Origin: Octopus sinensis
Lineage: Eukaryota
Length of the DNA stretch: 53,665 nucleotides
Direction: 5' to 3'
Assembly (NCBI RefSeq): GCF_006345805.1
Contig: NW_021834020.1
Span: forward strand, 1 to 53,665
Positions 3,516-52,440 of the stretch are shown piece by piece. Both the position numbers and the translations under genes were made by a program. The notes beneath the pieces are model-generated. The model ran no database searches, was not told where the DNA came from, and saw nothing but the letters and a program-made list of their open reading frames with translations. Each line of letters starts with the position of its first letter. Positions within the stretch are counted from its first letter, which is position 1.

Positions 3516-3985
3516 GTCATTGTTCAGTTTTATTTCAAGATTTCTTGCCTATACAGAAAGAGCCGGTTTCTAACCCTGATTCAAGACTCCTTCATTGGCA
3601 TTTCAACATCAGGGTATTTTTTTATGTATATGTGTAGATTTGTATGTTTCACTTTATGTACGTTCTCTCATGCCTATAGTTGCATCTGTAGACATGTTTA
3701 TATATGTATATTTTTAAATGATAAACTTTTGGAAAGTTTTACAGATTTTTTAAAGTTCTCAAGTTTGGTACCTAGGCAACATTTACTTTTAATTAAAATA
3801 CAATCCAAAGCATGGCTTCATTTCTATAAGATATGGATTCTCTTCCTGTAATCGTTGACCACAGTTTATTTCGAGGGCATTAAGTGTAATTTATCTAGTG
3901 CATAATTAAATATTTATAGCTATCGATATATTGCCATGGTAAAATAAAATCGTTTAGATTACCATGCATACAAACGCAGTTGACT
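3516..3985 (+). repeat. ~470-bp unique-looking block, copy 1 of 3
   Basis: Near-identical to 8712-9180 and 12723-13190. Confidence 0.9.
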
Positions 3986-4024
3986 TGTTACATGTGTATG
4001 TGTGTATGTATGTATGTATGTATG

Positions 4025-8711: not shown

Positions 8712-9180
8712 GTCATTTTTGATTTTTTTTCAAATTTTCTTGCCTATAGTGAAAGAACCGGTTTCTAACCCTGATTCAAGACTCCTTCATTGGCATTTCA
8801 ACATCAAGGTATTTTTTTATGTATATGTGTAGCTTTGTATGTTTTACTTTATGTACGTTCTCTCATGCCTATAGTTGCATCTGTAGACATGTTTATATAT
8901 ATATATTTTTAAATGATAAACTTTTGGAAAGTTTTACAGATTTTTTTACTTTCTCAAGTTTGGTATCTAGGCAACGTTTCCTTTTAATCGAAATCCAATC
9001 CAAAGCATGGCTTCATTTCTATAAGATATGGATTCTCTTCCTGTAATCGTTGACCACAGTTTATTTCGAGGGCATTAAGTGTAATTTATCTAGTGCATAA
9101 TTAAATATTTATAGCTATCGATATATTGCCAAGTTAAAATAAAATCGTTTCAATTACCATGCATACTAACGCAGTTGACT
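8712..9180 (+). repeat. ~470-bp block, copy 2 of 3
   Basis: Near-identical to 3516-3985 and 12723-13190. Confidence 0.9.
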
Positions 9181-9185
9181 TCTAC

Positions 9186-12722: not shown

Positions 12723-13190
12723 GTCATTGTTCAGTTTTATGCCAATATCTCTTGCCTATAGAGAAAGAGCCGGTTTCTAACCCTGATTCAAGACTCCTTC
12801 ATTGGCATTTCAACATCAGGGTATTTTTTTATGTATATGTGTAGATTTGTATGTTTCACTTTATGTACGTTCTCTCATGCCTATAGTTGCATCTGTAGAC
12901 ATGTTTATATATATATATTTTTAAATTATAAATTTTTGGAAAGTTTTACAGATTTTTTTAAGTTCTCAAGTTTGGTATCTAGGCAACGTTTACTTTAATT
13001 CGAAGTACAATCAAAAGCACGGCTTCATTTCAATAAGATATGGATTCTCTTCCTGTAATCGTTGACTACAGTTTATTTCGAGGGCATGAAGTGTAATTTA
13101 TCTAGTGCATAATCAAAAATTTAAAGCTATCGATATATTGCCAAGTTAAAATAAAATCGTTTCTATCACCATTCATACAAACGCAGTCGT
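12723..13190 (+). promoter_or_regulatory. ~470-bp block, copy 3; runs directly into the putative first exon, so a candidate promoter region
   Basis: The repeat is directly visible; the promoter role is inferred from position only. Contains TATCGATA in all three copies. Confidence 0.3.
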
Positions 13191-13199
13191 CTTCTTTCA

Positions 13200-13710
13200 A
13201 GCGGTTTAGATGCTAAGATCGATGGATAGTAACAGTTGCTGTTGATAACCTAACAAAGCTACGTGTGAAACTGATAATTTACTTACCTTCTGAAGAGCAA
13301 AGCATTCTGGAGAGAAAGACAAACGAATATAAGACCTGGAATTTAAGAACTTATTTAACGAAAAGTGAAATTACCTGGCGACATCTTCTGGAGTAAGAGG
13401 AAAAGAAAGTTCAAGTTGTCCATCGATTTTTATAAGAGTGGAAGAACTCGGGAGAGATTGTTTTAAAGACATCGTCTTTTCGAAGCCAATGCAAAAAGAA
13501 ATCAACTGTGAAATATCCTGAATTTATTCTTAAATTATCAGAACGAAGAGAATAGGAATAAATAAAAGAAAGCTTGTTTATCGAGACTAGGAAAAGGGAA
13601 CATTAAAAGGCAGAAGCTTATTGTTTGCAGTGGGACACGTCTTGTTGGTCGATTTTGCAACTAAAAGTGAAGTTTACTTAACAACCCTGTAACAGTGATG
13701 AACCTTAAAG
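13200..13710 (+). other. Putative upstream first exon of gene A (5' limit unknown)
   Basis: Ends ATGAACCTTAAAG|GTAAGT (ATG at 13698). Splicing to the acceptor TTTCAG|GAATGG at 19030 gives in-frame MNLKG-MEAP. The block is conserved in three minus-strand copies. Confidence 0.55.
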
Positions 13711-13734
13711 GTAAGTGAATTAATGATATTAAGA

Positions 13735-14410
13735 ATGAAAAGAGAGATAATTACTGAAATTGTTTTTGTAATTCTATAATATAAAATACTGTAGCTGACT
13801 TGTGCTTTTATTACACTCGATTTACCATTTTCATGTTCCACTTCCGATGAGAATGGAAAGGACGGAGATGGATTTGTAGAAATCATGGATCGACTGATCA
13901 ACTATCCTTTCTACTCTGTCTTGAAACTTAACGTTCTGATTTCGAATTTTGCTGTGATTTAGGATTTAATGTAGATAGACAGATTTAAAATAAAGAATTA
14001 GATATGAAAATAGGGTAATAAGTCTTAGGATAGTGATTAGCGATCTGTTGAATATTAAAATAAATAACACTGGGCAAATCTTTTCTTGTCTGGTGCCTGG
14101 AATATTTTAATTAATTCCAAGTGATTTTGCCTGCTAAATTCAAAACTTACTCCAGTTTTTCTTTATCAGGTCTGGTTTTCTGACTAGACCTGATAGAGTA
14201 AGTATTTTATTCATACAAGAGGCATATAATATGAATCGATAAAGAGAGATTATTACTGAAATTGTTTTTATAATTCTATAATCTAGAATACTGTAGCTGA
14301 CTTGTGCTTTCGTTACATTCGGTTTACATTGGTCATTTCTCGTTTCCTCAGAGAACGGAAAGGACATGGATGGATTTGTAGAAATCATGAATCGACTGAT
14401 AAACTATCTT
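13735..14410 (+). repeat. ~170-bp direct duplication (13735-13905 and 14240-14410)
   Basis: Shared AAAGAGAGAT..TTACTGAAATTGTTTTT..GGATTTGTAGAAATCATG. Confidence 0.85.
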
Positions 14411-14994
14411 TAGTATTCAGTCAAGTCCCTCTACATTCTCTTTAGAATCCCACCGTGGCGGATATTGTAGTTCGTCTGTGTGTCTCGTATGTTGCTTACG
14501 TCCATAAAAGAAATCATTTTTAGACAAAGAGCTGTGAATGAGAGAATCAAGGAACCGCTCTCGAATTAAAATGCCACTATCTAATCTCTATTCGACTTTC
14601 ACTTTCGTTTTTAACGAAATGAGAAAACGAAGCTTAAATAACATCGAATCAATCTTATATCTTTGCTTAGGAAAAATCCTGATTTTCTACCAGTGTAAAA
14701 ATTGTTGTTTCAGATAATGAGTAATATTTAAGGATATAGAAGTTAGGATTCCTGGCTGTTATCCAGGCGCCACGGGATCCATTCCCGTCACAGGAATGGC
14801 ACTGATTTTAGGTGCAGGTGTTCCTGTACAATAAGAGATTTGCTTTCCAATCACATAGTTCCGGGTTCTGTCCCACTGCGTGGCACCAGCGCCAGGGGCA
14901 ATTTAGTTTTAATCTGAGCCGACAAAACACTTGTGAATGTATGTATGATTGACGAAAACTGAAAGAAACCAGTCTCAGACACACACGCGCACAC

Positions 14995-18972: not shown

Positions 18973-19031
18973 GCCCACACATGAGGGGGCGTGTATTTAA
19001 ATATGTGTGTACAATGGTTTATCTTTCAGGA

Positions 19032-22000
19032 ATGGAAGCACCAATCCAATTTCGTTTGACTCTCATATTGCTGCCAGCTCTGACTCTTGTATTTTTTATG
19101 GCCCCGAGAACTGGATTATCAGCGAATACAAAAGTCCTTTTCGGAGAAATCTCTTCATCAAAATGCATATCTTCCCTGAATAACACATTTGAAAACACGG
19201 CGTCAGTTCAAGAATGTGCATTTTGGTGTATTTTAGAAAACCAGTGCCAATATTTTAGCTATTGTAATGGCTCATGTCATATGCATCAATCACTTTACGA
19301 CAAAGAAATTAAGGATTATGATTGCAAATGTTCATCATATATTTTGCTCTCTGGAAAAGGTATGTGAATCACAATTTTCTTATGTGCTTTTCTAATTTAA
19401 GCGTCATTAACACTATGTTTTACATACATACATACATACATACATAAGCGGCCCTTATCGGTGGCAGAAATCAGGTCGCAAACGGAAGATTTATACTGGA
19501 ATGAAGAGATTTCCTCCTTTATCAGATGAAGTAGATGATGATGATGATGATGATGATATTCTAGATAGCACGGAAGAAAATGATGGATCGATAAAGTGCA
19601 TCGATTTTTGTCCATTTCTTTATTTATTTGACAACTATGCGGGAATCTTAAATAAATTTACGATAATGCCGGACGCAAAGAAAAGGGACTCTTTTATGGC
19701 ACTCAAAAATAATGAGGTCGTCAAATTTACTGTACGAGAGACTAACAATTATTATAACCTTTGTACTTAATTAAGATGAAAATAAATATAAAATTTACTC
19801 TTACAAAAAAGAGTTTGCTTCGTTTTTTGCCTGTTTGTTAAACATATTCATGCAACACTTTCTTGCCCCTCAAGGGTTAATATATTGTCTGTACATTTTC
19901 ATGTAAATTATTGATTTCTATCTATTTACTGATACAGTTACAGAGTGGCAGAAAGTATTTGAGATGACCCCAAACTCATTCAAAAGAAGTCCTATTTATT
20001 TATACTGGGGCAAATTGCCCATTGAAAAGGTAATGAAGTTTCAAAATTCTCCTCATTTAATAAACAATCTCCATTTTGGTCTGTCCGCTATATTTTGGGG
20101 CATTTGGTTTTTCCCTTTTTTTCTGTCGATATTATAAGGGTGTATGACTTCAGTGCCCTTCGTATCGTCTATTTTGTTCTTGCAGTTTGCCTTTAGTAAC
20201 AAACAGGATCCAGTTTCGATACTCTGGCTTATTTTCATACACGTTATGGTTATAACTAGAAAAGGGGATTTAAGGGGGAGTTTGGAGAACGATAGAACCA
20301 CAGCAGATGTTGGATCGATGAGGAATACATATTTTGAAGTGGAATAACAAGGGGCTTTAACTGCTAAGATCGAAATAAGAATGGTGAGTGGTTATAAGTG
20401 TAGGAATATAGGGTTGAGTAGACATGAGGTGGAGAAAGAAGGGGAGAGATTATGAGAAGGTTCTGTGTCAGCGAGGAAAAACGTTTGTCTTGCATTTTAA
20501 AAGGAAGAGGTGGAAGGATGAAATTCACGAATATGTAGATGGGACAGTAAAAATACTTTTAATTCGAGACGAACTTCAGAAAAGCTACACTCTACCAGGG
20601 TCAAAAGAACTTGATGGACACACCTACACGCGTACCCCAGCATTTGGTCAGAAGCTACTGACCCTCTGGCATCCGCTTCACCTAAGAGTCTTGACCAAGG
20701 AAGAGGCGGATCGAAAGCCCCTTTCTTGAGATGATGTCACAACTCCTTTACTTCCGTTCCTGATATCTCTCTTCATTCCTCCACAGAACATCGATATGTC
20801 TTTGATGTGGGATCGATTCTTGCTGGTTTTGACTTTGTTTTATCCTGATTTTGTCAGGGTTTCTAGTTCCTGTAGATGCAACAAAACTTTTAGAAAGACT
20901 CCGAAATCATGACTCATTAGTTAGTAGTCTGATTCTCTGTCTCGTAAGTCAGCCACGTTTTACTCTTTAACCCAATCACTTTCTGTCTTAATTTTGCTCT
21001 TCTAACGCGACATAGCATCTCGTCTTCTCATTTTCCTTCCTTCTGTCTGTCTGTCTGTTTGTCTCTCCTCCTCTTCCTCCTATCTCTTGTCTTCTCTAGT
21101 CTTTTTCTCTTGCACTCAAAGTCTCACTCTTCCCCCCCCCACTGTTCTCTCCATCTCATTCTCGCCCTCCAACTCTCTCCTTATATCACATCCTAGTCTC
21201 CTTTCTCTTCCTACAACTCTGTCCTCCCTCATTCTCTGAGGTTCGTTACAAGTCCGAATTTACTTTCTATTTGCAGGTGGAGTTACGTTTGAAAAAAGCA
21301 TCATGTGATAAAGTAATCATTTTCAATGGAAAAGGGACGAATTCTATATCGTGGTTCCAGAAAGATAAAATCATTTCAAAACTGTGGTCTCAGGTTCCAC
21401 ACACCGTGACTTTCAATGCGAAGTATATATTATCTCTTCTTAACTCATAATTAACATCTTTAATTACTTAATAATTGTTCTTTTGAACACATTCACGGCG
21501 TATATATAAAAAGAAAGTTCACAGATATACTTTATATCTCATTGTTGTATAATATTATAATTCCATAATAATAATCCTTTCTCCCGTAGGCAGAACGTCT
21601 GATAGTTTGTTGGGAGCGGGGGAAGGGGTTGTCGATGGCATCGGTACCACTGTCAAAATGGTAATCATTTCAACGACCCATGAAATGGTGATAGGCAAAA
21701 TTGACCTCGGCGGAATTTGAAATCCGGATGTATAGACGGACAAAATACTGCTAAGCATTTTATCCGGCATGCTAAAGATTCTGCCAACTCGCCGCCTTAT
21801 AATAATGATAATGTTTTCGTTATGAAGCTTAAGGTTTGACAAAAAGATCGATGAGGGTACAATTGATTTTGTGTGGGATTACATTTAAAAAAACATGTAA
21901 ACATAGAAAATAACAAAAAATATAAGAAAAACAATTTATCAATTGTAATATATTAGTTTCAGTTACCCGAACTTTACCTTTGCGTATCAAATCTGGAAGA

Positions 22001-23006
22001 TAGAAGCCAAAAGAGAAAGTGGAGATAGTGAAGAGTACGATATTTCTAGCAAAACGGCGGACGGTAGTAAGTAAAACATCGCCTCTTGATTTCAGTGTAA
22101 TTGATTGTATAAATCTGTGTTGGCGTACGCGCATGCATGTGTGCGTGTGTGTGTGCGTATGTGTGTGCGTGTGTGTGTGCGTGCGTGCACAGGTCTGGTT
22201 TTCAAGAAGCATTGTCTCATAAACAAATCTTTTAAATAGTTTTTCTTTAAAGCCAAAACAATGCAAGTTGTACCAAAATATTAATAATACAAGTCAGTGG
22301 TTTTTACTCTTCTCTAGTATTTCAGTATTTCGGAGCAAGGAATCCTTCTTCGGCAAATTTATGGAGAAACGGTGCTGATAACTGTTTTCCCTGCTCTCTG
22401 GCGTGTGATTATGAAGAGTTGGTTTGTGTTGCTATACACTGAACCGCAAAAGAAACGAGACATGTGTGTGACTGTGAAATATGTTTTAATTTCTTTATGT
22501 CTGAGATCAATTTTGATACATCTGACAAACCTATCAATGGATTCAGTGATAGGTTGAATATTTTTTCAGTGTCTCAAAAGCATTACGGTGAAAAAGACAA
22601 AGACAGTTCGTGGATTGCTAGAAATCGGATCTGATACATCACCAACTCGCCTCACTCCTGCCTTTCCGTTTTCGGAAAACAGGTGCACAATTATTTGCGG
22701 AATGGTCAAATTAATTTCAATGACACAAAAACCTGAAATATTATCAATTTTATTTAGTGTTTTCAACGGTCAACTTAGAAACAAACTTTACTTTTTATAA
22801 GGATATATGTGTATGTATGTATGTATGTATGTATGTATGTATGTATGTATGTATGTATATATATGGTGGGGGGTGTTTGTGTGTGTGTGATGATCATCGA
22901 GAAATTTAGAGTTAATTTCATTAATTTCTAACAAATTTTTCATTATTTTTTTCCAGCTGTAATTGAAAGTTACGAAGCCATGGTCATCTCAGTGATTTTG
23001 AAGTAG
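19032..23006 (+). CDS. Gene A: spliced gene for a secreted 239-aa protein (signal peptide + PAN/Apple-like Cys domain + unnamed C-terminal domain); coding exons 19032-19359, 19938-20029, 21277-21422, 21963-22066, 22957-23006
   Basis: All introns are GT..AG with matching phases (1,0,2,1). The exons join to 720 nt of open frame ending in TAG. Protein: MEAPIQFRLTLILLPALTLVFF...ECAFWCILENQCQYFSYCNGSC...VTEWQKVF...IIFNGKGTNSISWFQKDKII...NYPNFTF...TVIESYEAMVISVILK*. Every exon has a counterpart in gene B. PAN-like call is from the CxxxCxxxxxCxxFxY..C spacing. Confidence 0.85.
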
Positions 23007-23397: not shown

Positions 23398-23667
23398 AGA
23401 TAGCAGAACCTTTTTTCGCCCATATTCTACACGATCGTTGTTGTTGACACTACATTATCGGATTTGAATCGAAATATTTTGGTACATTGTAATACATGTA
23501 AGAAATCAAACACGTGACCCGTCCGTTGTAGCGTTTTTAACTGACCACAATGCTAACAATCTGGCACATTTTACAATATAAAAACCGGTGTTAAATTTTC
23601 TTTTTTCAGAGTTTATCTTTTTCATTAGCATATACCATTGTTCAGCTCGGAAATGCAAAATTTTTAT

Positions 23668-23705
<38 letters not shown>

Positions 23706-25079
23706 CATATATTCGCATCTTTTTTCCCTTCTTATGCTTAATATATTTTCTGAAATATTCTGTTGCACACAAAGACAAGTTTATGTATTTGCTTTCCCAA
23801 TGTAATATTCAAAGAGTGATTATTCTATGTTGTTTCTTTGCTGTTGTAATTTTTCCTCTGTGACTCAGTTATTTATTTTATTGTTGTTAAATAAAACATT
23901 TTTCATCTGAGAAAAAGACTCGTCTGTCATATTTCTGAAACAATTCTCTACTCTCTACCAACTACAACACACAACATTAATGTTAAAGGGGTGACTCCAC
24001 TGTAAGGAATCTTATTTAGAAACTGACCGAACCAACGATTAAAAGAACTTCTACAAACATTTTAAGATTAGTGATCTATACAACCATTCACCCAGACCCT
24101 CTCTCTCTGTGAGCTGGCTGAATCGTTAGCACGCCGGGAAAAATTCTTAGCGATATTTCATCTGTCACTAGGTTGTGAGTTCAAATTCCGCCGAGGTCGA
24201 CTTGGCCTTTTATTTTTTCGGGGTCAATTAAATAAGAGCCAGTTGAATATTGGGGTCAAAGTAATCGATTATCCCCATTCTCCCAAATTTCAGGCCTTGT
24301 GCCTATAGTAGAAAAAGATTATTATTATATAAAGGATAATGTAGCGAGCTGGTAGAATCGTTAGCACGCCATGCGAAATACTTAGCGGTATGTCGTCTGT
24401 CTTTACGTTGAGTTCAAATTCCGCCAATGTCGACTTTGCCTTTCATCCTTTCGGGGGATGGGTCAGTAAATTAATTATCAGTAGCGTACTAATCGACTGG
24501 GCCCCTCCCACAAAATTTCAGACGTTGTGCCTATCGTAGAAAGCATTATTATTATTATGAAGGTCCAGGCGGCGAGCTGGCAGAATTGTTAGCACGCCCG
24601 TCGAAATGTTTAGCTGTATTTCGCGCGTCGCTACGTTCTGAGTTCAAATTCCGCCGAGGTCAACTTTGATAATAATATTGATTAATTACATTGATACAGG
24701 ATTACATATTTGTGGGTAGGTAAGAGTCAATTATATCGATCCCTGTATATTTCATGGTATTTTATTTTGTAACTGTCCTTATTTAATCGACCCCGAAAGG
24801 ATGAAAGGCAAAGTCGACCTCGGCGGAATTTGGACTTAGAATGTAGCAGCAAGCGAAATACGGCTACGCATTTCGCCCAGCGTGCTAACGTTTCTGCCAG
24901 CTCGCCGCCATAAACGGAGTGGATATTAAATTACAACTGGATATGGTAGTGACATTTCAATCTTTAACACCTACACCTGGTAGAAAATAAAGAAACCTAT
25001 GTCAAGAAAAACAGCAAAAATTGCACGTGACAAACTACACTTTGTAGGGAAAAATAGCAAAATGGAATTCGTGGGTAAA

Positions 25080-26095: not shown

Positions 26096-26738
26096 GGGAT
26101 CTTTTCCTTTGGAACGGCAGATGTCAACACAATTTCTAGTTAACTAAACACTTTTAAACTTCGTATACTGGTAGAATGTGTTTATAAAACATCTTTTTCT
26201 CTTGGTTTTATTGAGAAAATTCTATAGTTTGTAAGATATTTCGTCTGAAAATCCGAGCATTTCGGCAATATTAACCAATCGATTACCTCCATTCAACTAA
26301 AATCATTTGCTGCGTCTAAAGCTGAGACAACATCCTGTCACTAACCCTAAACCCCACCTAAACTGAACCCTAATTTTTTTTTTCTTCATTGTTAAATTAA
26401 TTTAATTCCATTGCTTTAGTTTTTTTACATGCGTAACAAATTAATTTAACAATTAAGAAAAAAAATTTAGGGTTAGGGTTAGGGGGGAGGTTTAGGGTTA
26501 GTTACAGGATGTTGTCTCAGTATTAGACGCAGCAAATGATTTTAGCTCAAAAGAGAGCGTAGGATTGGTTAAAATTCGAAAAATTAAGCTAGGTTAAACT
26601 TACAAATTACAATTTTCTCAAGAAAGCCAAGAGAAAAAAATGTTTTATTTTGACACATTCTACCAGTATACGAAGTTTAAAAGTGTTTAGTTAACTAGAA
26701 ATTGTGTTGACATGTGCCGTTCAAAAGGAAAAGATCCC
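26096..26738. mobile_element. Fold-back element with ~300-bp inverted arms and internal (TTAGGG)-like repeats
   Basis: GGGATCTTTTCC...GGAAAAGATCCC ends; related pieces at 31373-31462 and 35569-35920. Confidence 0.8.
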
Positions 26739-27265: not shown

Positions 27266-28486
27266 TATATATAGAGGGAAATGGGAGCGTGGTGAATGGT
27301 TGTGTAGATCACAGATCTTAAAAACTTTGTATAAGAGTTGAGGAACTTGTTTCAATCGTTGCCTGGGTCAGTTGACAAATAAGATTCCTCACGTCGGTGG
27401 CTGTGAGCTGGCCGAATCGTTAGCACGCTGGTCGAAATGCTTGGCGGCCTTTTGTCTATCTTCACGTTTTCAGTTCAAATTCCACCGAGATTGACTTTAC
27501 ATTTCATCCTTTCGGGGTCGATAAAATAAGTACTGGTTGAGTGCTGGGGTCGATTTATCTTCTCCTTGAAATTGTCGGCCTTCTGGTAAAATTTGAAATC
27601 AGTATATCTCACGTAGTGATCACCCATTTAATATTACTCTTTACTCTTTTACTTGTTTCAGTCATTTGACTGCGGCCATGCTGGAGCACCGCCTTTAGTC
27701 GAGCAAATCGACCCCGGAACTTATTCTTCGTAACCCCAGTATTTATTCTATCGGTCTCTTTTGCCGAACCGCTAAATCACGGGGACGTAAACACACCAGC
27801 ATCGGTTGTCAAGCAATGCTAGTGGGACAAACACAGACACACAAACACACACATATACATATATACATATATACGAGAGGCTTCTTTCAGTTTCCGTCTA
27901 CCAAATCCACTCACAAGGCATTGTTCGGCCCGGGGCTATAGCAGAAGACACTTGCCCAAGAGGCCACGCAGTGGGACTGAACCCGGAACCATGTGGTTGG
28001 TTAGCAAGCTACTTACCACACTGCCACTCCTGCGCCTATAAATGTTATATGTTGAAGTTGATATAAAGAAGAACGGGAAATATTTTAGAAATATGACAGA
28101 CGAAACTCTTTTCTCAAATAAAAATGTTTTATTTTACAACAATAAAAAGTATAACTGGGTTACAGAGAAAAGAGTAGAAGAGTAAAGTAACCAGAAAGAA
28201 TAGTTACTCTTTGAGATATTCAATTCGGAAATATTTCATTCGAATATATTACATTCGTGCGTCGCGGAGTGTTTCCCATTCGTGCACCACAGAAAGCATA
28301 TTAAATACATGACCGAAAAATATGTGAATGTGTGTGTGTGTGTGTATGGACTTTGGGTGGCGGTGGGGTGAAATATCTTGCATTTCTGAGTTAAAGAACA
28401 ATATATACTGAGGAAGGATAATCTCTGAAGTAAAAAATTTAGCAAGATATCTTTTTCATAATGTGAAATAGACTGAAGCGCCCTCT

Positions 28487-29809: not shown

Positions 29810-36691
<6,882 letters not shown>

Positions 36692-37569
36692 TCCTGAAAA
36701 ATATCCAAGCATACAAGTATACAGCATACATTCGTTTCTGTTTATTTATCTCTCTCTGTCTCTTTCTCTATTTGTCTGAGATTCGAACCCGCGATCCCTC
36801 GACCGCGAGTCCGCTGCTCTAACCACCAGACCGTGGCTTTATACGGAATAAACTGTGTGAATGTACCTGGTGTACGGGTCGCCTACGACCTCAGCAGGGT
36901 TTGAACTCCTAACGTAGAGCCGGAAGAAATGTCGCTACCCACTTCCTCAGTTTAGTATTAAGGAAAGCAAAGGCAGAGTATAATTTGAGAAATAGTGAGG
37001 GAACAGTTAACCATTTGCTCTACAAGGATGATCTGAAGCATTTTTTACTACGAATGAAAAAGAGATTGATTCCTTAATACTGACTATAAGATTCTTCAGC
37101 AAAGATACAGCCATGGAATTTGGCGTAGATATGTGTACAATATTATATTTCTTTACTACCCACAAGGGGCTAAACACAGAGGGGACAAACAAGGACAGAC
37201 AAAGGGATTAAGTCGATTACATTGAACCCAGTGCGTAACTGGTACTTAATTTATCGACCCCGAAAGGATGAAAGGCAAAGTCGACCGCAGCGGATTTTCA
37301 ACTCAGAACGTAGCGGCAGATGAAATGCCTATTTCTTTACTACCCACAAGGGGCTAAACACAGAGGGGACAAACAAGGACAGACAAACGGATTAAGTCGA
37401 TTACATTGACCTCAGTGCAAAACTGGTACTTAATTTATCGACCCCGAAAGGATGAAAGGCAAAGTCGACCTCGGCGGAATTTGAACTCAGAGCGTAACGG
37501 CAGACGAAATACGGTTAAGCATTTCGCCCGATGTGCTATAACGCTTCTGCCAGCTCGCCGCCTTGTGTA

Positions 37570-38070
37570 ATATTAGTCATGAGAAGGAAACAGGTTGTCA
37601 ACAGTGAAGGCATCCATTTAACAGATGGCCAGACGTTAAAATCATAGAAAGGAGGAGAGAGTTATAAGTTTCTAGACGTATTAGAATCTGCCAGAGTACT
37701 ATCTACAGAAATGAAAACGAAAATTGAGAAGGAGTACATCAGAAGGGTGAGGAAGCTATTGAAATCAAAGTAAATGGTTCGAATCTAGCGAAGGACGTAG
37801 ATACTTGGGTCGTATCATTACTTAGATACTCAACAGCTTTTGTAGATTGGGGATAACTGAATTAGCAAAGGTAGACAGAAGAACTAGGAAGGAATTCAAT
37901 ATGAATGGAGGACTCGACCCAAGGGCAAGAATAGCAAGATTATACATACCTAGAAAGGACGGGAGAGGGTTAATATAAGCAGAAGGCTGCGTGGGTTTGC
38001 TCGAGTAGATATAGACTCCTTTATAGGAAATAGTGAAGAAAGTTTATTAAGAGCTGCTAGAGTCGTAAGC
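37570..38070 (+). mobile_element. Decayed non-LTR retrotransposon fragment, R4/Dong-like RT C-terminal part
   Basis: YKFLDVLE..KEYIRRVRKLLKSK..TWVVSLLRYS..VDRRTRK..RLYIPRKDG, with stops and frameshifts. Confidence 0.8.
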
Positions 38071-38339
38071 ATATCATAGAATTATGAAGGCACTTGTACT
38101 GGAAAGGCATATCTGAGGGAATAAGTGGAATTCTAGGGATTAATACAGGTTCACCGCTTGCTTTACCAGTCAAAATTATTACCTCCAAGATTATAATACT
38201 AACTGCTATATTATACATTAGATAATGTAGTCCTAGATACACTATGCCTGAATGAAAGATGGGATGGTCACAGCTGGAACGTCCTTGATAATGGGTCTGT
38301 CTGGATCAGGACTGATCTTGGGCTAAACAACAACAACTT

Positions 38340-39080
38340 TCATTCTTAATATCATTAATTCACTTACCTTTAAGGTTTATGATTGTTACAGAGTTTGTTG
38401 AGGAAGCTTCACTTTTAGTTAAAAATCGACCAACCGGACAAATCTCACTGGAAACAATATCTTCTGCCTTTTAATGTTCCCTTTTCCTAGTCTCGATAAA
38501 CAGGATTTCTATTATCTTCTTCGTTCTGACAATTTAAGAATAAACTCAGGATATTTCACAATTCATTTTGTTTTGCTTTGGTTTCAAAAACATATCTCCT
38601 TAAAACAATATCTCCAGATTTATCTTTTGCACTCCCAATTAAGATAGATGTACAACTTGAACTTTCTTTCCTTCTAACTCCAGGAGTTGTCGCCAGGTTA
38701 TTTCATTTTTTCTTAAACACGTTCTTAAACTCGGAGTCTTCTGCCTTTTAATATTTCTTTTTTTCTAGTTTCGATAAACAGGATTTCTTTTATTCCTTTC
38801 TATTCTCTTCGTTCCGACAATTTAAGAATAAACTCAGGATATTTCACAGTTCAAACTTCAAGAAGATGATATCTCCTTAAAACAATATCTTCAGATTTTT
38901 TACTCTCTTATTAACATAGATGTACAACTTGAACTTTCTTTCCCTCTGACTCTAGAATTTGCCCGCAGGTTATTTCGCTTTTCTCAAATACGTTCGCAAA
39001 CTTGAAGTCTTATATTGTCGTTGCTTTCTTTCCAAAGTACTTTGCTTTCATGATTATTTATAAATTATCAGTTTCACTCT
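38340..39080 (-). other. Diverged copy of the putative first-exon block, nearest to gene B, with an internal ~270-bp duplication
   Basis: Reverse complement of ~13270-13740. Donor AAG|GTAAGT is kept (GT at 38367-38366) but the upstream ATG reads ATA. Confidence 0.5.
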
Positions 39081-41887: not shown

Positions 41888-43610
41888 CACCTGCCGCTGG
41901 TGCCACGCAGTGGGACAGAACCCGGAACTATGGGCTTGGAAAGCAAACCTCTTATTGTACAGGAACACCTGCACCTAAAATCAGTGCCATTCCTGTGACG
42001 GGAATGGAACCCGTGGCGCCTGGATAAACAGCCAGGAATCCTAACTTCTATATCCTTAAATATTATTCATTATCTGAAACATAACTATTTTTACTCTGGT
42101 AGAAAACCAGGATTTTTCCTAAGCAAAGATATAAGATTGATTCGATGTTACTTAAGTTTCGTTCTCTCATTTCGTTGAAAACGAAAGTGAAAGTCGAATA
42201 CATAGAGAATACATAGTGGAATTTTAATTCGAGAGAGGCTCATTGATTCTCTCATTCACAGCTCTTTGTCTAAAAATTTCTTTTATGGACGTAAGAAACA
42301 TACGAGACACATAGACGAAGTACAATATCCACCACGGTGGGATTCTAAAGAGAATGTAGAGGGACGTGACTGAATACTAAAGATATTTTATCAGTCGATT
42401 CATGATTTCTACAAATCCATCCCCGTCCTTTCCGTTCTCTGTGGAAATGTGAAATAATAACTGTAAACCGAATGTAACGAAAGCACAAGTCAGCTACAGT
42501 ATTCTAGATTATAGAATTATAAAAACAATTTCAGTAATAATCTCTCTTTATTGATTCATATTATATGCCTCTTGTATGAATAAAATACTTACTCTATCAG
42601 GTCTAGTCAGAAAACCAGACTTGATAGGGAAAAACTGGAGTAAGTTTTGAATTTAGCCGGCAAAATCACTTGGAATTCATTGAAATATTCCAGGCACCAG
42701 ACAAGAAAAAATTTTCCCAGTGTTATTAATTTTAATATTCAACAGCTCGCTAATCCTTATCCTAAGACTTATTACCCTATTTTCATATCTATTTCTTTAT
42801 TTTAAATCTGTCTATCTACATTAAATCCTAAATAACGGCAGAATTCTAAATAAGAACGTTAAGTTTCAAGACAGAGTAGAAAGGATAGTTGATCAGTCGA
42901 TCCATGATTTCTACAAATCCATCTCCGTCCTGTCCATTTTCACTGGAAGTGGGAAATGAAAATGGTAAACCGAGTGTAATAAAAGCACAAGTCAGCCAAT
43001 GTATTTTATATTATAGAATTATAAAAACAATTTCAGTAATTATCTTTTTTCATTCTTAATATTATTAATTCACTTACCTTTAAGGTTCATGACTGTTACA
43101 GGGTTGTTAAGTAAACTTCACTTTTAGTTGCAAAATCGACCAACAAGACGTGTCTCACTGCAAACAATAAGTTTCTGCCTATTAATGTTCCCTTTTCCTA
43201 GTCTCGTTAAACAAGCTTTCTTTTATTTATTCCTATTCTCTTCCTTCTGATAATTTAAGAATAAATTCAGGATATTTCACAGTTCATTTCTTTTTGCATT
43301 GGCTTCGAAAAGACAATGTCTTTAAAACAATATCTCCCGAGTTCTTCCACTCTTTGCTCTTCAGAAGGTAAGTAAATTATCAGTTTTACCCGTAGCTATG
43401 TTAGGTTATCAACAGCAACTGTTTCTATCCATCGATCTTAGCATCTAAACCGCTTGAAAGAAGTCGACTGCGTTTGGATGCATCGTGAGCGAAACGATTT
43501 TATTTTAACTTGGCAATAGATCGATCGCTTTGAAGTTGTAATTTTTACACTAGATAAATTACACTAAATGCCCTCGAAAAACCTGTGGTCAACGAGTACA
43601 GGGAAAGAAT
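40986..43610 (-). repeat. Young inverted copy of the gene A upstream/intron region (~13040-15950)
   Basis: Long near-identical reverse-complement matches, e.g. 14400-14890 vs 41890-42390 and 13430-14400 vs 42390-43350. Donor and ATG are retained at 43077-43090. Confidence 0.85.
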
Positions 43611-50404: not shown

Positions 50405-51120
50405 CAATCCCTGTCCTTTCCATTCTCTGTGGAAATGAGAAATGATAATGATAAACCGAATGTAATAAAAGCACAAGTCAGCCACGGTATTTTATATTAT
50501 AGAATTATAAAAACACAAGTCAGTAATTATCTCTCTTTTCATTCTTAATATTATTAATTCACTTACCTTTAAGGTTCATCACTGTTACAGGGTTGTTAAG
50601 TAAACTTCACTTTTAGTTGCAAAATCGACCAACCAGACGTGTCTCACTGCAAACAATAAGCTTCTGCCTTTTAATGTTTCCTTTTCCTAGTCTCGATAAA
50701 CAAGCTTTCTTTTATTTATTCCTATTCACTTCGTTCTGATAATTTAAGAATAAATTCAGGATATTTCACAGTTGATTTCTTTTTGCATTGGCTTCGAAAA
50801 GACAATGTCTTTAAAACAATCTCTCCCGAGTTCTTCCACACTTATAAAATCGATGGCCAACTTGAACTTTCTTTCCCTCTTACACCAGAAGTCGTCGCTA
50901 GATAATTTCACTTTTCGTTAAATAAGTTCTTAAATTCCAGGTCTTATATACGTTTCTCTTTCTCTCCAGAATGCTTTGCTCTTCAGAAGGTAAGTAAATT
51001 ATCAGTTTTACCCGTTGCTTTGTTAGGTTATCAACAACAACTGTTTCTATCCATCCATCTTAGCTAATAAACTGCTTGAAACATGTTGACTGCGTTTGTA
51101 TGCATGGTGAGCGAAACGAT
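50405..51120 (-). repeat. Fourth copy of the first-exon block
   Basis: Reverse complement of ~13150-13870; ATGAACCTTAAAG|GTAAGT is intact (GT at 50566-50565). Confidence 0.8.
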
Positions 51121-52440
51121 TTTCTTTCAACTTACAGACACATACATATATACACACATTCATACATGAATATATACACACACATACATACATACATACA
51201 TACATACATACATACATACATACATACATACATACATACACACATACATGCATACATACATATATACACACACATACATACACACACATATATACATACA
51301 TACATATATACACACACATTCATACATACATGAATACTTACACACACATACATAAATACACAAATACATTCATGAATACATACACTCACATACATACATA
51401 CACACATACATACATGAATATATACGCACACATACATATATACACACATATATACATATATACACATACATACATACACATATTCATACATACATGAATA
51501 CATACATATACATACATATATACACACATACATTCATGAATACCTACACTCACATACATATATACACACATTCATACATAGATGGAAGCATGCTGTGTTA
51601 CAGTGCGTCGCTTCGTCCCCCATTTCTAAGGGATTCCTTGGCGGACGACCCCTTTTTATAATTTAGGCGACAACCCTACAACCCATTGCTCTGTTTGGGC
51701 AGTCGTTGGTAGTGAGGATTTTACGGGATCAAAGTGCAAATCATAACTCGCCCCCATTTGGTGGCTTTTTACGAAACGCAGACGAAACGCTGGGTCTATT
51801 CATTGATATGCCAGTCCCCTCACAGCCCTGGGGCAACGTGAAATACAGAACTTTGCTCACGGAAAACATACGCCATCCTGTCCATGAATCGATCGCACGG
51901 TCAGCGAATCATGAGTGCAAATCCTGATCCCTAAACCACGCATATTCACTGAGGAAAAAAATTATAAACGTTGGGATTATATCTTAATATTCAATAAAAC
52001 AATAATCATTTTCCCTGATTGTGAGTATCTTATCACTTCTGGATACTAATCGATACTAAGAACATAACTAGATTATACTCCACGGAAAACATGTCTACTT
52101 AAGAAGAAAGAAAGAAAATATACTTTAAACAGATAAATCACGGTTGTCTACATATTGAATAGACTCAAGGATGTTTATCGCAATCAGCAGCCGGATGTTA
52201 TTAATTAATATTTTCAATTCATTCTTTCAAAGTGATTATACCTCAGCGTTGTAAAGACTTCACGAATATTTCGTGTTCGAACTTGTTACTTTTCTTAAAT
52301 TAATGAGGCTTTTTTCCTGTCTTAAAAATTCATTTTAATTGTGATTTTATCATGACGTGGCAGATGTATCATTTTAATGAGGATGTGTGTGTGTGACGTG
52401 GAAAGTGGTGTATGTGTGTATATATAATATACATATATAC

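Follow-up and report, generated by a model that had tools for sequence, protein, structure and literature searches.

The window analysed here (the whole 53,665-nucleotide stretch of Octopus sinensis contig NW_021834020.1) carries two intact, convergent paralogous genes, A and B, which self-alignment of the masked window recovered as inverted collinear copies at 19.0-23.0 kb (+) and 36.7-29.8 kb (-). Both genes have five main coding exons with GT-AG splicing, identical phases (1, 0, 2, 1) and open frames. In gene A (+ strand), exon 1 (19030..19359, with an internal ATG at 19032) encodes a probable signal peptide and a predicted PAN/apple domain with eight cysteines. Exon 2 (19938..20029) encodes the conserved start of the C-terminal domain and shares 19/30 residues and 80% of its nucleotides with B, while exon 3 (21277..21422) joins a conserved FNG...SWF core to a hypervariable 3′ third, as can be seen from A versus B identities of 66, 76 and 42% across its 50-nt windows. 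Exon 4 (21957..22066), the acceptor of which was set from the database model of B, and the last coding exon including the stop codon (22957..23006) complete the gene. Gene B (- strand) is O. sinensis LOC118761643 (P0025), to which its exons are identical letter for letter where that model reaches: exon 1 (36364..36693, ATG at 36691), exon 2 (35216..35307, 30/30), exon 3 (32013..32158, 48/48), exon 4 (30825..30937, taken from the database model) and the last coding exon including the stop codon (29810..29859, 15/15). For gene A, no database model comes close to identity, the best match being 140/187, and a profile search found no more exon copies within the window.

Counted from the internal Met, the encoded proteins are 241 (A) and 242 (B) residues long. 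Their N-terminal hydrophobic stretch is likely to be a signal peptide, judging by eye and from a predicted helix, and both proteins are likely secreted. An earlier note on this DNA had described fixed cysteines without frame breaks; this holds for the open frames and for the PAN cysteines (8/8 fixed between A and B, with identical codons at 7/8), but not for single cysteines in the leader peptide, exon 2 and exon 3, which differ between the copies. A Cys replaces a nearly invariant Trp of the family (LYW to LYC) at 35216-35305 (-) in B and likewise in the O. bimaculoides ortholog, a lineage-specific change that is retained in both species.

The coding part of a leader mini-exon of gene A (MNLK plus the first base of G, phase 1) can be recognized by its motif and GT donor at 13698..13710 (+). 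Family models start with MNLKG, as does this 13-nt coding leader exon, and we infer that it is spliced to 19030. The surrounding leader region (13434..14896, +) is 94.9% identical to an inverted copy upstream of B (41890..43354, -; aligned as 43354-41890), with 75 differences in 1458 columns (JC 0.053) and an intact mini-exon at 43090. This match represents either a young duplication or a conversion tract, and the 1.46-kb stretch as a whole may have arisen by partial re-duplication. An older copy nearest B (38338..38740, -) is 85% identical to that of A and carries ATA in its mini-exon (38381) where the others have ATG, and a further copy (50407..51132, -) is 92.7% identical to that of A with an intact mini-exon at 50579. 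There are thus four leader exon regions for two genes, and the two that lie upstream of B and are 93-95% identical to that of A raise the possibility that the leader used by B is of A type and was copied recently.

A and B belong to an Octopus-expanded family, for which 14 models were found in O. sinensis and 8 in O. bimaculoides, all uncharacterised; they sit among the Octopus proteins labelled “Apple domain-containing” (LOC106880400, LOC106867736 and LOC118768098-101). Run against 1.84 billion representatives, a family profile matched 19 of them with E<1e-30 and 163 with E<0.001. Fixed motifs alternate with variable, indel-prone segments in the family sequences. The tree joins B to O. bimaculoides LOC106880400 (UFBoot 100), and its partner for A is O. 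sinensis LOC118768101 (95), on a poorly resolved backbone. The family was not found described in the literature searched for octopus PAN/apple-domain proteins, and supplementary gene lists beyond that literature could flag it as expanded or as positively selected; in the portion of PMC7656900 available to us, “PAN domain” appears as two labels in a supplementary gene-family expansion figure, with no means of identifying the genes. A search for an octopus apple domain in the posterior salivary gland returned no literature match, and a venom role is without support.

The domain assignments draw on structure models of the paralogs P0004 and P0019, rather than of A or B themselves. Profile scores for PAN lie below the curated cut-offs (PAN_4, 17.8 bits, E 0.0035, against 27; PAN_1, 16.2 against 21.4), and sequence searches of solved structures gave weak PAN matches only (E 0.048 or worse). 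The P0004 model (pLDDT 84.9) has a PAN fold that aligns over 77 residues with the HGF N domain (3hms; Z 9.9, rmsd 2.2), and its ten best structure matches are all PAN/apple-type entries. On the strength of this model, the N-terminal domain is assigned as PAN/apple. The C-terminal domain (exons 2-5) is beta-rich in the P0019 model (pLDDT 91.1), where the TLDc (Z 5.0) and fibrinogen (Z 4.9) matches are both weak, as is the best Foldseek match (L-ficolin, E 0.035, TM 0.45); no Pfam match and no fold match above Z 5.0 were found for this domain. Structure neighbours in the Atlas include an Apple-domain cluster from molluscs (TM 0.78) and, from cnidarians, a cluster that was automatically named fibrinogen C-terminal (TM 0.75). 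Neither these PAN and beta-domain clusters nor the Octopus “Apple domain-containing” proteins carry an assigned function. Across the family, conservation is lower in loops (0.53) than in strands and helices (0.61, p 0.015), a gap that is only slight in A versus B identity (40/86 in loops, 62/117 in strands and helices). Domain type and evolutionary rate together suggest a protein for extracellular binding or recognition, its variable surfaces borne by a fixed core of disulfides and beta structure.

Compared as DNA, the exons of A and B are 71.7% identical (199/702 nt differ) and the alignable introns 81.7% (317/1732 columns differ; exon excess, p 7e-8), which bears out the earlier note's observation that the exons are the more diverged part. 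Its exon 1 count of about 60/109 identical residues is exact, and its 18/48 for exon 3 becomes 18/46 or 20/44, depending on gap placement. The intron blocks were delimited by BLAST hits and exon edges and comprise about 1,740 aligned bases of the 3,255 intron bases in A (6,159 in B), with the unaligned remainder, partly copy-specific repeats, excluded. The exon excess persists when the best block is removed (introns 80.4%, p 3e-6) and outside intron 2 (introns 79.8%). Zero-fold sites also diverge more than introns (118/441, p 1e-4), and at the few fourfold sites 10/39 differ (p 0.29 versus introns). Transitions and transversions number 87 and 118 in exons, and 168 and 149 in introns. Alignment bias was rejected as the cause, since sequences simulated at an exon-like distance of 0.36, with a uniform rate and small indels only, aligned at 72.5% (maximum 74.8% in 25 runs) and not at 82%. 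CpG decay was likewise rejected (non-CpG identity 72.4% in exons versus 83.1% in introns), as was base composition (GC 37% in both).

The introns themselves are heterogeneous. Long blocks range from 74.9% to 95.5% identity (heterogeneity p 2e-6, or p 0.014 without the best block), and a two-state intron model separates 8.5% from 25% divergence (2dlnL 25.8, versus at most 5.1 in 30 shuffles). A whole-gene version, in which old-state introns equalled exons, was circular and was discarded. The most diverged long block is the 3′ block of intron 1 (19682..19937, +; 74.9%, K 0.31), which equals dS within error. Intron 2 contains shared blocks of 86.2% and 79.6% (20302..21028, +), without Pfam, Rfam or Atlas match, followed by a pyrimidine-rich block (21077..21235, +) that is 95.5% identical to 32355-32200 (7/156 differ, K 0.046; best-window permutation 1/10,000), is unstructured as RNA and is likely a conversion tract. 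Identity of roughly 90% had been estimated by eye between 21080-21235 and 32352-32197, where we count 146/153 columns (95%); similarly, the 900 bp or so of intron 2 thought to be alignable amounts to 970 columns at 83.3%. The earlier note had, however, set protein identity against this single best DNA block, which is a young outlier tract. Within approximately 45 bp of exons, identity is 80.5% versus 82.1% deeper, which gives no overall gradient; a single sharp step, from 95.5% to 70.7%, lies ahead of exon 3.

The protein evolves very fast. Nei-Gojobori estimates over 232 codons gave dN 0.34 and dS 0.43 (ratio 0.81, 0.55-1.16), codon likelihood gave dN/dS of 0.78-0.94 and a joint exon-intron model 0.98, none of which differs from 1; over all methods, dN for A versus B ranges from 0.34 to 0.39 and dS from 0.34 to 0.46. 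When sites were sorted by how conserved they are among 16 further members of the family, with A, B and sister sequences excluded, the conserved codons (88/234) had dN/dS of 0.37-0.41 (p<0.001) and the variable codons (76) 1.64-1.79 (p 0.016-0.052). The variable-site excess is not significant under a single 0.7 threshold (1.25-1.42, p 0.12-0.33) or on the 193 unambiguously aligned codons (1.42-1.50, p 0.18-0.24). The M1a/M2a comparison gave p 0.012-0.016 on all codons and failed on the unambiguous subset; as evidence of selection this pairwise test was dropped, since intron pseudo-codon controls were positive in 3/6. Pseudogene drift was also rejected, with about 14 stop codons expected and 0 seen, and with purifying selection at conserved sites. 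About one third of sites are under purifying selection, and diversifying selection is likely at the variable sites. The diversifying selection proposed by the earlier note is upheld in part: dN (0.34-0.39) exceeds the intron distance (0.21) and variable sites tend to lie above 1 (1.64-1.79), but the gene-wide ratio of 0.78-0.98 does not differ from 1. Its parallel with venom-type acceleration fits the greater divergence of exons than introns but not the mature codons, where dN/dS is 0.76-0.96 and never significant, nor the signal or leader peptide, which is not spared (17/29 residues; 75.9% nucleotide identity versus 72.9% in the PAN part).

How these rates are read depends on the clock. Since B and LOC106880400 group together (UFBoot 100), the split between A and B predates that separating O. 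sinensis from O. bimaculoides, for which the available part of PMC10925132 gives a mean autosomal dS of 0.123. B differs from its O. bimaculoides ortholog at 52/239 residues, against a neutral expectation of 53.6 (dN 0.132, 0.105-0.169). Conserved sites account for 9 differences versus 17.3 expected (p 0.011), and variable sites for 20 versus 15.2 (p 0.10), with a variable-site dN/dS by likelihood of 1.58 (1.05-2.30), or 1.29 (0.85-1.90) at a clock of 0.15. At the protein level, A and B lie 2.9 times as far apart as B and its ortholog, which, assuming true orthology, constant dN/dS and the genome-average rate, puts the neutral distance between A and B at about 0.36. In the joint model (234 codons), dS (0.421) exceeds intron K (0.211, p 0.0005); on the 193 unambiguous codons dS is 0.337 (p 0.036 versus the intron distance, and p 0.087 without the outlier block), and when the intron 1 block (K 0.31) is the only one compared, dS does not differ from it. 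The earlier note had named dN/dS well below 1 with dS far above intron divergence as the outcome that would speak against it; the half of this concerning dS is what we observe, dS too being greater than the intron distance. A neutral distance of about 0.36 fits dS and the intron 1 block (0.31) and not the intron mean of 0.21, so the introns look too young. Both tracts of approximately 95% (K 0.046 and 0.053) are younger than the duplication: 7/156 in the intron 2 block differs from 0.123 at p 0.002, before correcting for block choice, and 75/1458 in the leader tract at p 1e-16. The identity of the introns is a poor guide to the age of this gene pair.

The reading that we prefer, with a probability of roughly 0.55, is an old duplication, followed by protein change at about the neutral rate over a constrained core with probably diversifying surfaces, and by later, patchy exchange of non-coding DNA that spared the exons. 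According to this model, the duplication giving A and B would precede the split of O. sinensis from O. bimaculoides; the protein would since have changed at approximately the neutral rate, with its core constrained and its surfaces probably diversifying; later gene conversion would have homogenised patches of non-coding DNA between the copies; and selection would keep conversion tracts out of exons. Gene conversion is the likely source of the too-young introns, judging from tract age in two copies only, and selection against conversion in exons is likely as well. The absence of an overall drop in intron identity near exons counts against this model.

The same rates could be produced by relaxed constraint only, that is, by a birth-and-death family in which a core is constrained and the rest drifts neutrally without positive selection, and the youthful look of the introns comes from conversion or from slower change in non-coding DNA. 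In Octopus, such DNA may just evolve less quickly than synonymous sites. A gene-wide dN/dS that never exceeds 1 fits this account, as do the loss of significance of the variable-site excess with the single 0.7 threshold or unambiguous codons, the modest surplus at variable sites between B and its ortholog (20 versus 15.2 expected) and the lack of specificity of the site-mixture test. We nevertheless consider it rather unlikely, because an average near 1 with 88/234 codons at about 0.4 places the remainder at or above 1, because the variable class exceeds 1 in both independent comparisons (1.25-1.79 and 1.58, 1.05-2.30), and because both frames have stayed open since before the species split.

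Classical accelerated evolution, in which the introns give the correct age, the duplication is recent and strong diversifying selection has driven the exons ahead, gains from the excess at zero-fold sites and the more numerous exon transversions, from the similar non-coding distance of the older leader copy (0.17), and from the dN/dS of 1.90 (p 8e-9; 1.50 on unambiguous codons, p 0.001) obtained when dS is forced to the intron distance. That equality is itself rejected (p 0.0005 and 0.036), the ortholog clock gives 0.36, the introns do not form one clock and the leader peptide is not spared, all of which make this account unlikely. It is very improbable that the conserved intron DNA is instead constrained (as a splicing element, RNA gene or hidden exon) or consists of separately inserted transposons, which would render the contrast uninformative about exons. 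Such a view could appeal to the 95% block being a run of pyrimidines that lies 41 nt ahead of the acceptor, and to one 224-nt block that is free of indels. The blocks are, however, collinear, in the same position and orientation, with no further copy in the window; Pfam matched 0/18 intron-2 frames, and Rfam, RNA folding and the Atlas gave no support. Hidden-frame tests reached p<=0.05 in 5/30 cases and in none after correction, the exon excess extends beyond intron 2, and the protein also evolves fast when timed by the species clock.

In venom phospholipase A2 (PLA2) genes the ratio of intron distance to dS is about a quarter. The corresponding octopus ratio is approximately 0.5-0.6, gene-wide dN/dS is not above 1, and there is no relation in sequence or fold. 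Likenesses to the habu SSP and snake venom PLA2 genes, as far as PMC6609765 was available to us, lie in the clustered multigene family, the retained cysteine scaffold and the repeat-rich introns, together with a KA/KS near 1 in habu SSP (0.63-1.74 among SSP pairs). Scorpion toxin precursors, in the accessible text of PMC2651877, likewise have a mature region more diverse than introns, fixed cysteines and an excess of transversions. Unlike in these toxins, the octopus leader is not hyperconserved (76% nucleotide identity vs 73%), and the product is a two-domain protein of 240 residues instead of a short peptide. Cone-snail toxin precursors (conotoxins) share these likenesses and differences. 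A closer parallel in mechanism is provided by the primate L/M opsins, for which intron conversion and selection against conversion in exons have been described (PMC3213168, PMC3924837, in the parts available), with the same pattern in gibbons (PMC3213168). As in the opsins, the octopus copies are neighbouring paralogs older than speciation with patchy, young intron tracts, and both dS and dN exceed intron divergence without dN being above dS (PMC3213168, available part). The octopus introns are, unlike those of the opsins, only partly homogenised (82%), the copies are inverted, half of the protein sites are different, dN/dS being about 1 even between orthologs, and conversion is deduced from tract age and not from multi-species intron trees.

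The evolutionary pattern is well known; it occurs here in a fast-evolving Octopus family of which the literature searched gave no description. A family whose orthologs diverge at the neutral rate while frame and fold are kept is a good candidate for an arms race in immunity, gamete recognition or prey interaction, and this gene pair gives studies of expression and of populations something definite to test. It also serves as a warning against dating clustered paralogs in general by the identity of their introns.

On a separate 21.3-Mb sequence, LOC118768099 is identical to B at 135/139 residues, and the LOC118768098-101 cluster may be represented by this scaffold as a second haplotype or a very recent duplicate. 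A distinctly unlikely extension is that the locus is an octopus-specific hypervariable recognition locus of diversifying, secreted PAN and fibrinogen-like proteins, with the scaffold as the second LOC118768098-101 haplotype. B would then be allelic to LOC118768099, and A to LOC118768100 or 101; these two match intron 3 of A in read-through (17/17 and 8/8), with proteins just 59% and 75% identical. If true, this would imply allelic divergence on the scale of the MHC or self-incompatibility loci, within an immune, gamete or venom system of a cephalopod.

Several features of the introns and flanks were also recorded. Three further O. sinensis models have C-terminal tails that agree with intron sequence of A at 61/66 residues, compared with 326/482 for their exons (p 1e-5); this favours the conversion model for the family more widely, but the tails may be real alternative exons. 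Open stretches match the tail of LOC118768100 in intron 3 of A (21835-21888, +; 17/17) and that of LOC118761499 in intron 4 (22317-22442, +; 36/41), representing alternative last exons or annotation read-through. Upstream of the leader of A, a 470-bp piece occurs three times at 92-94% identity (3518-3992, 8714-9183 and 12725-13199, +), set in long microsatellite tracts. The first intron of B contains decayed reading frames without a Pfam match (36940-38250, +), which we take to resemble ORF2 of an R4/Dong-like non-LTR retrotransposon. Between the genes lies a 190-bp inverted-repeat hairpin (26324-26518) with sub-threshold microRNA-family matches only, presumably a MITE. Just downstream of A, a 950-bp segment (23399-24350) has an inverted duplicate at 47052-46124 (86.5%), part of which is also found downstream of B (28038-28220).
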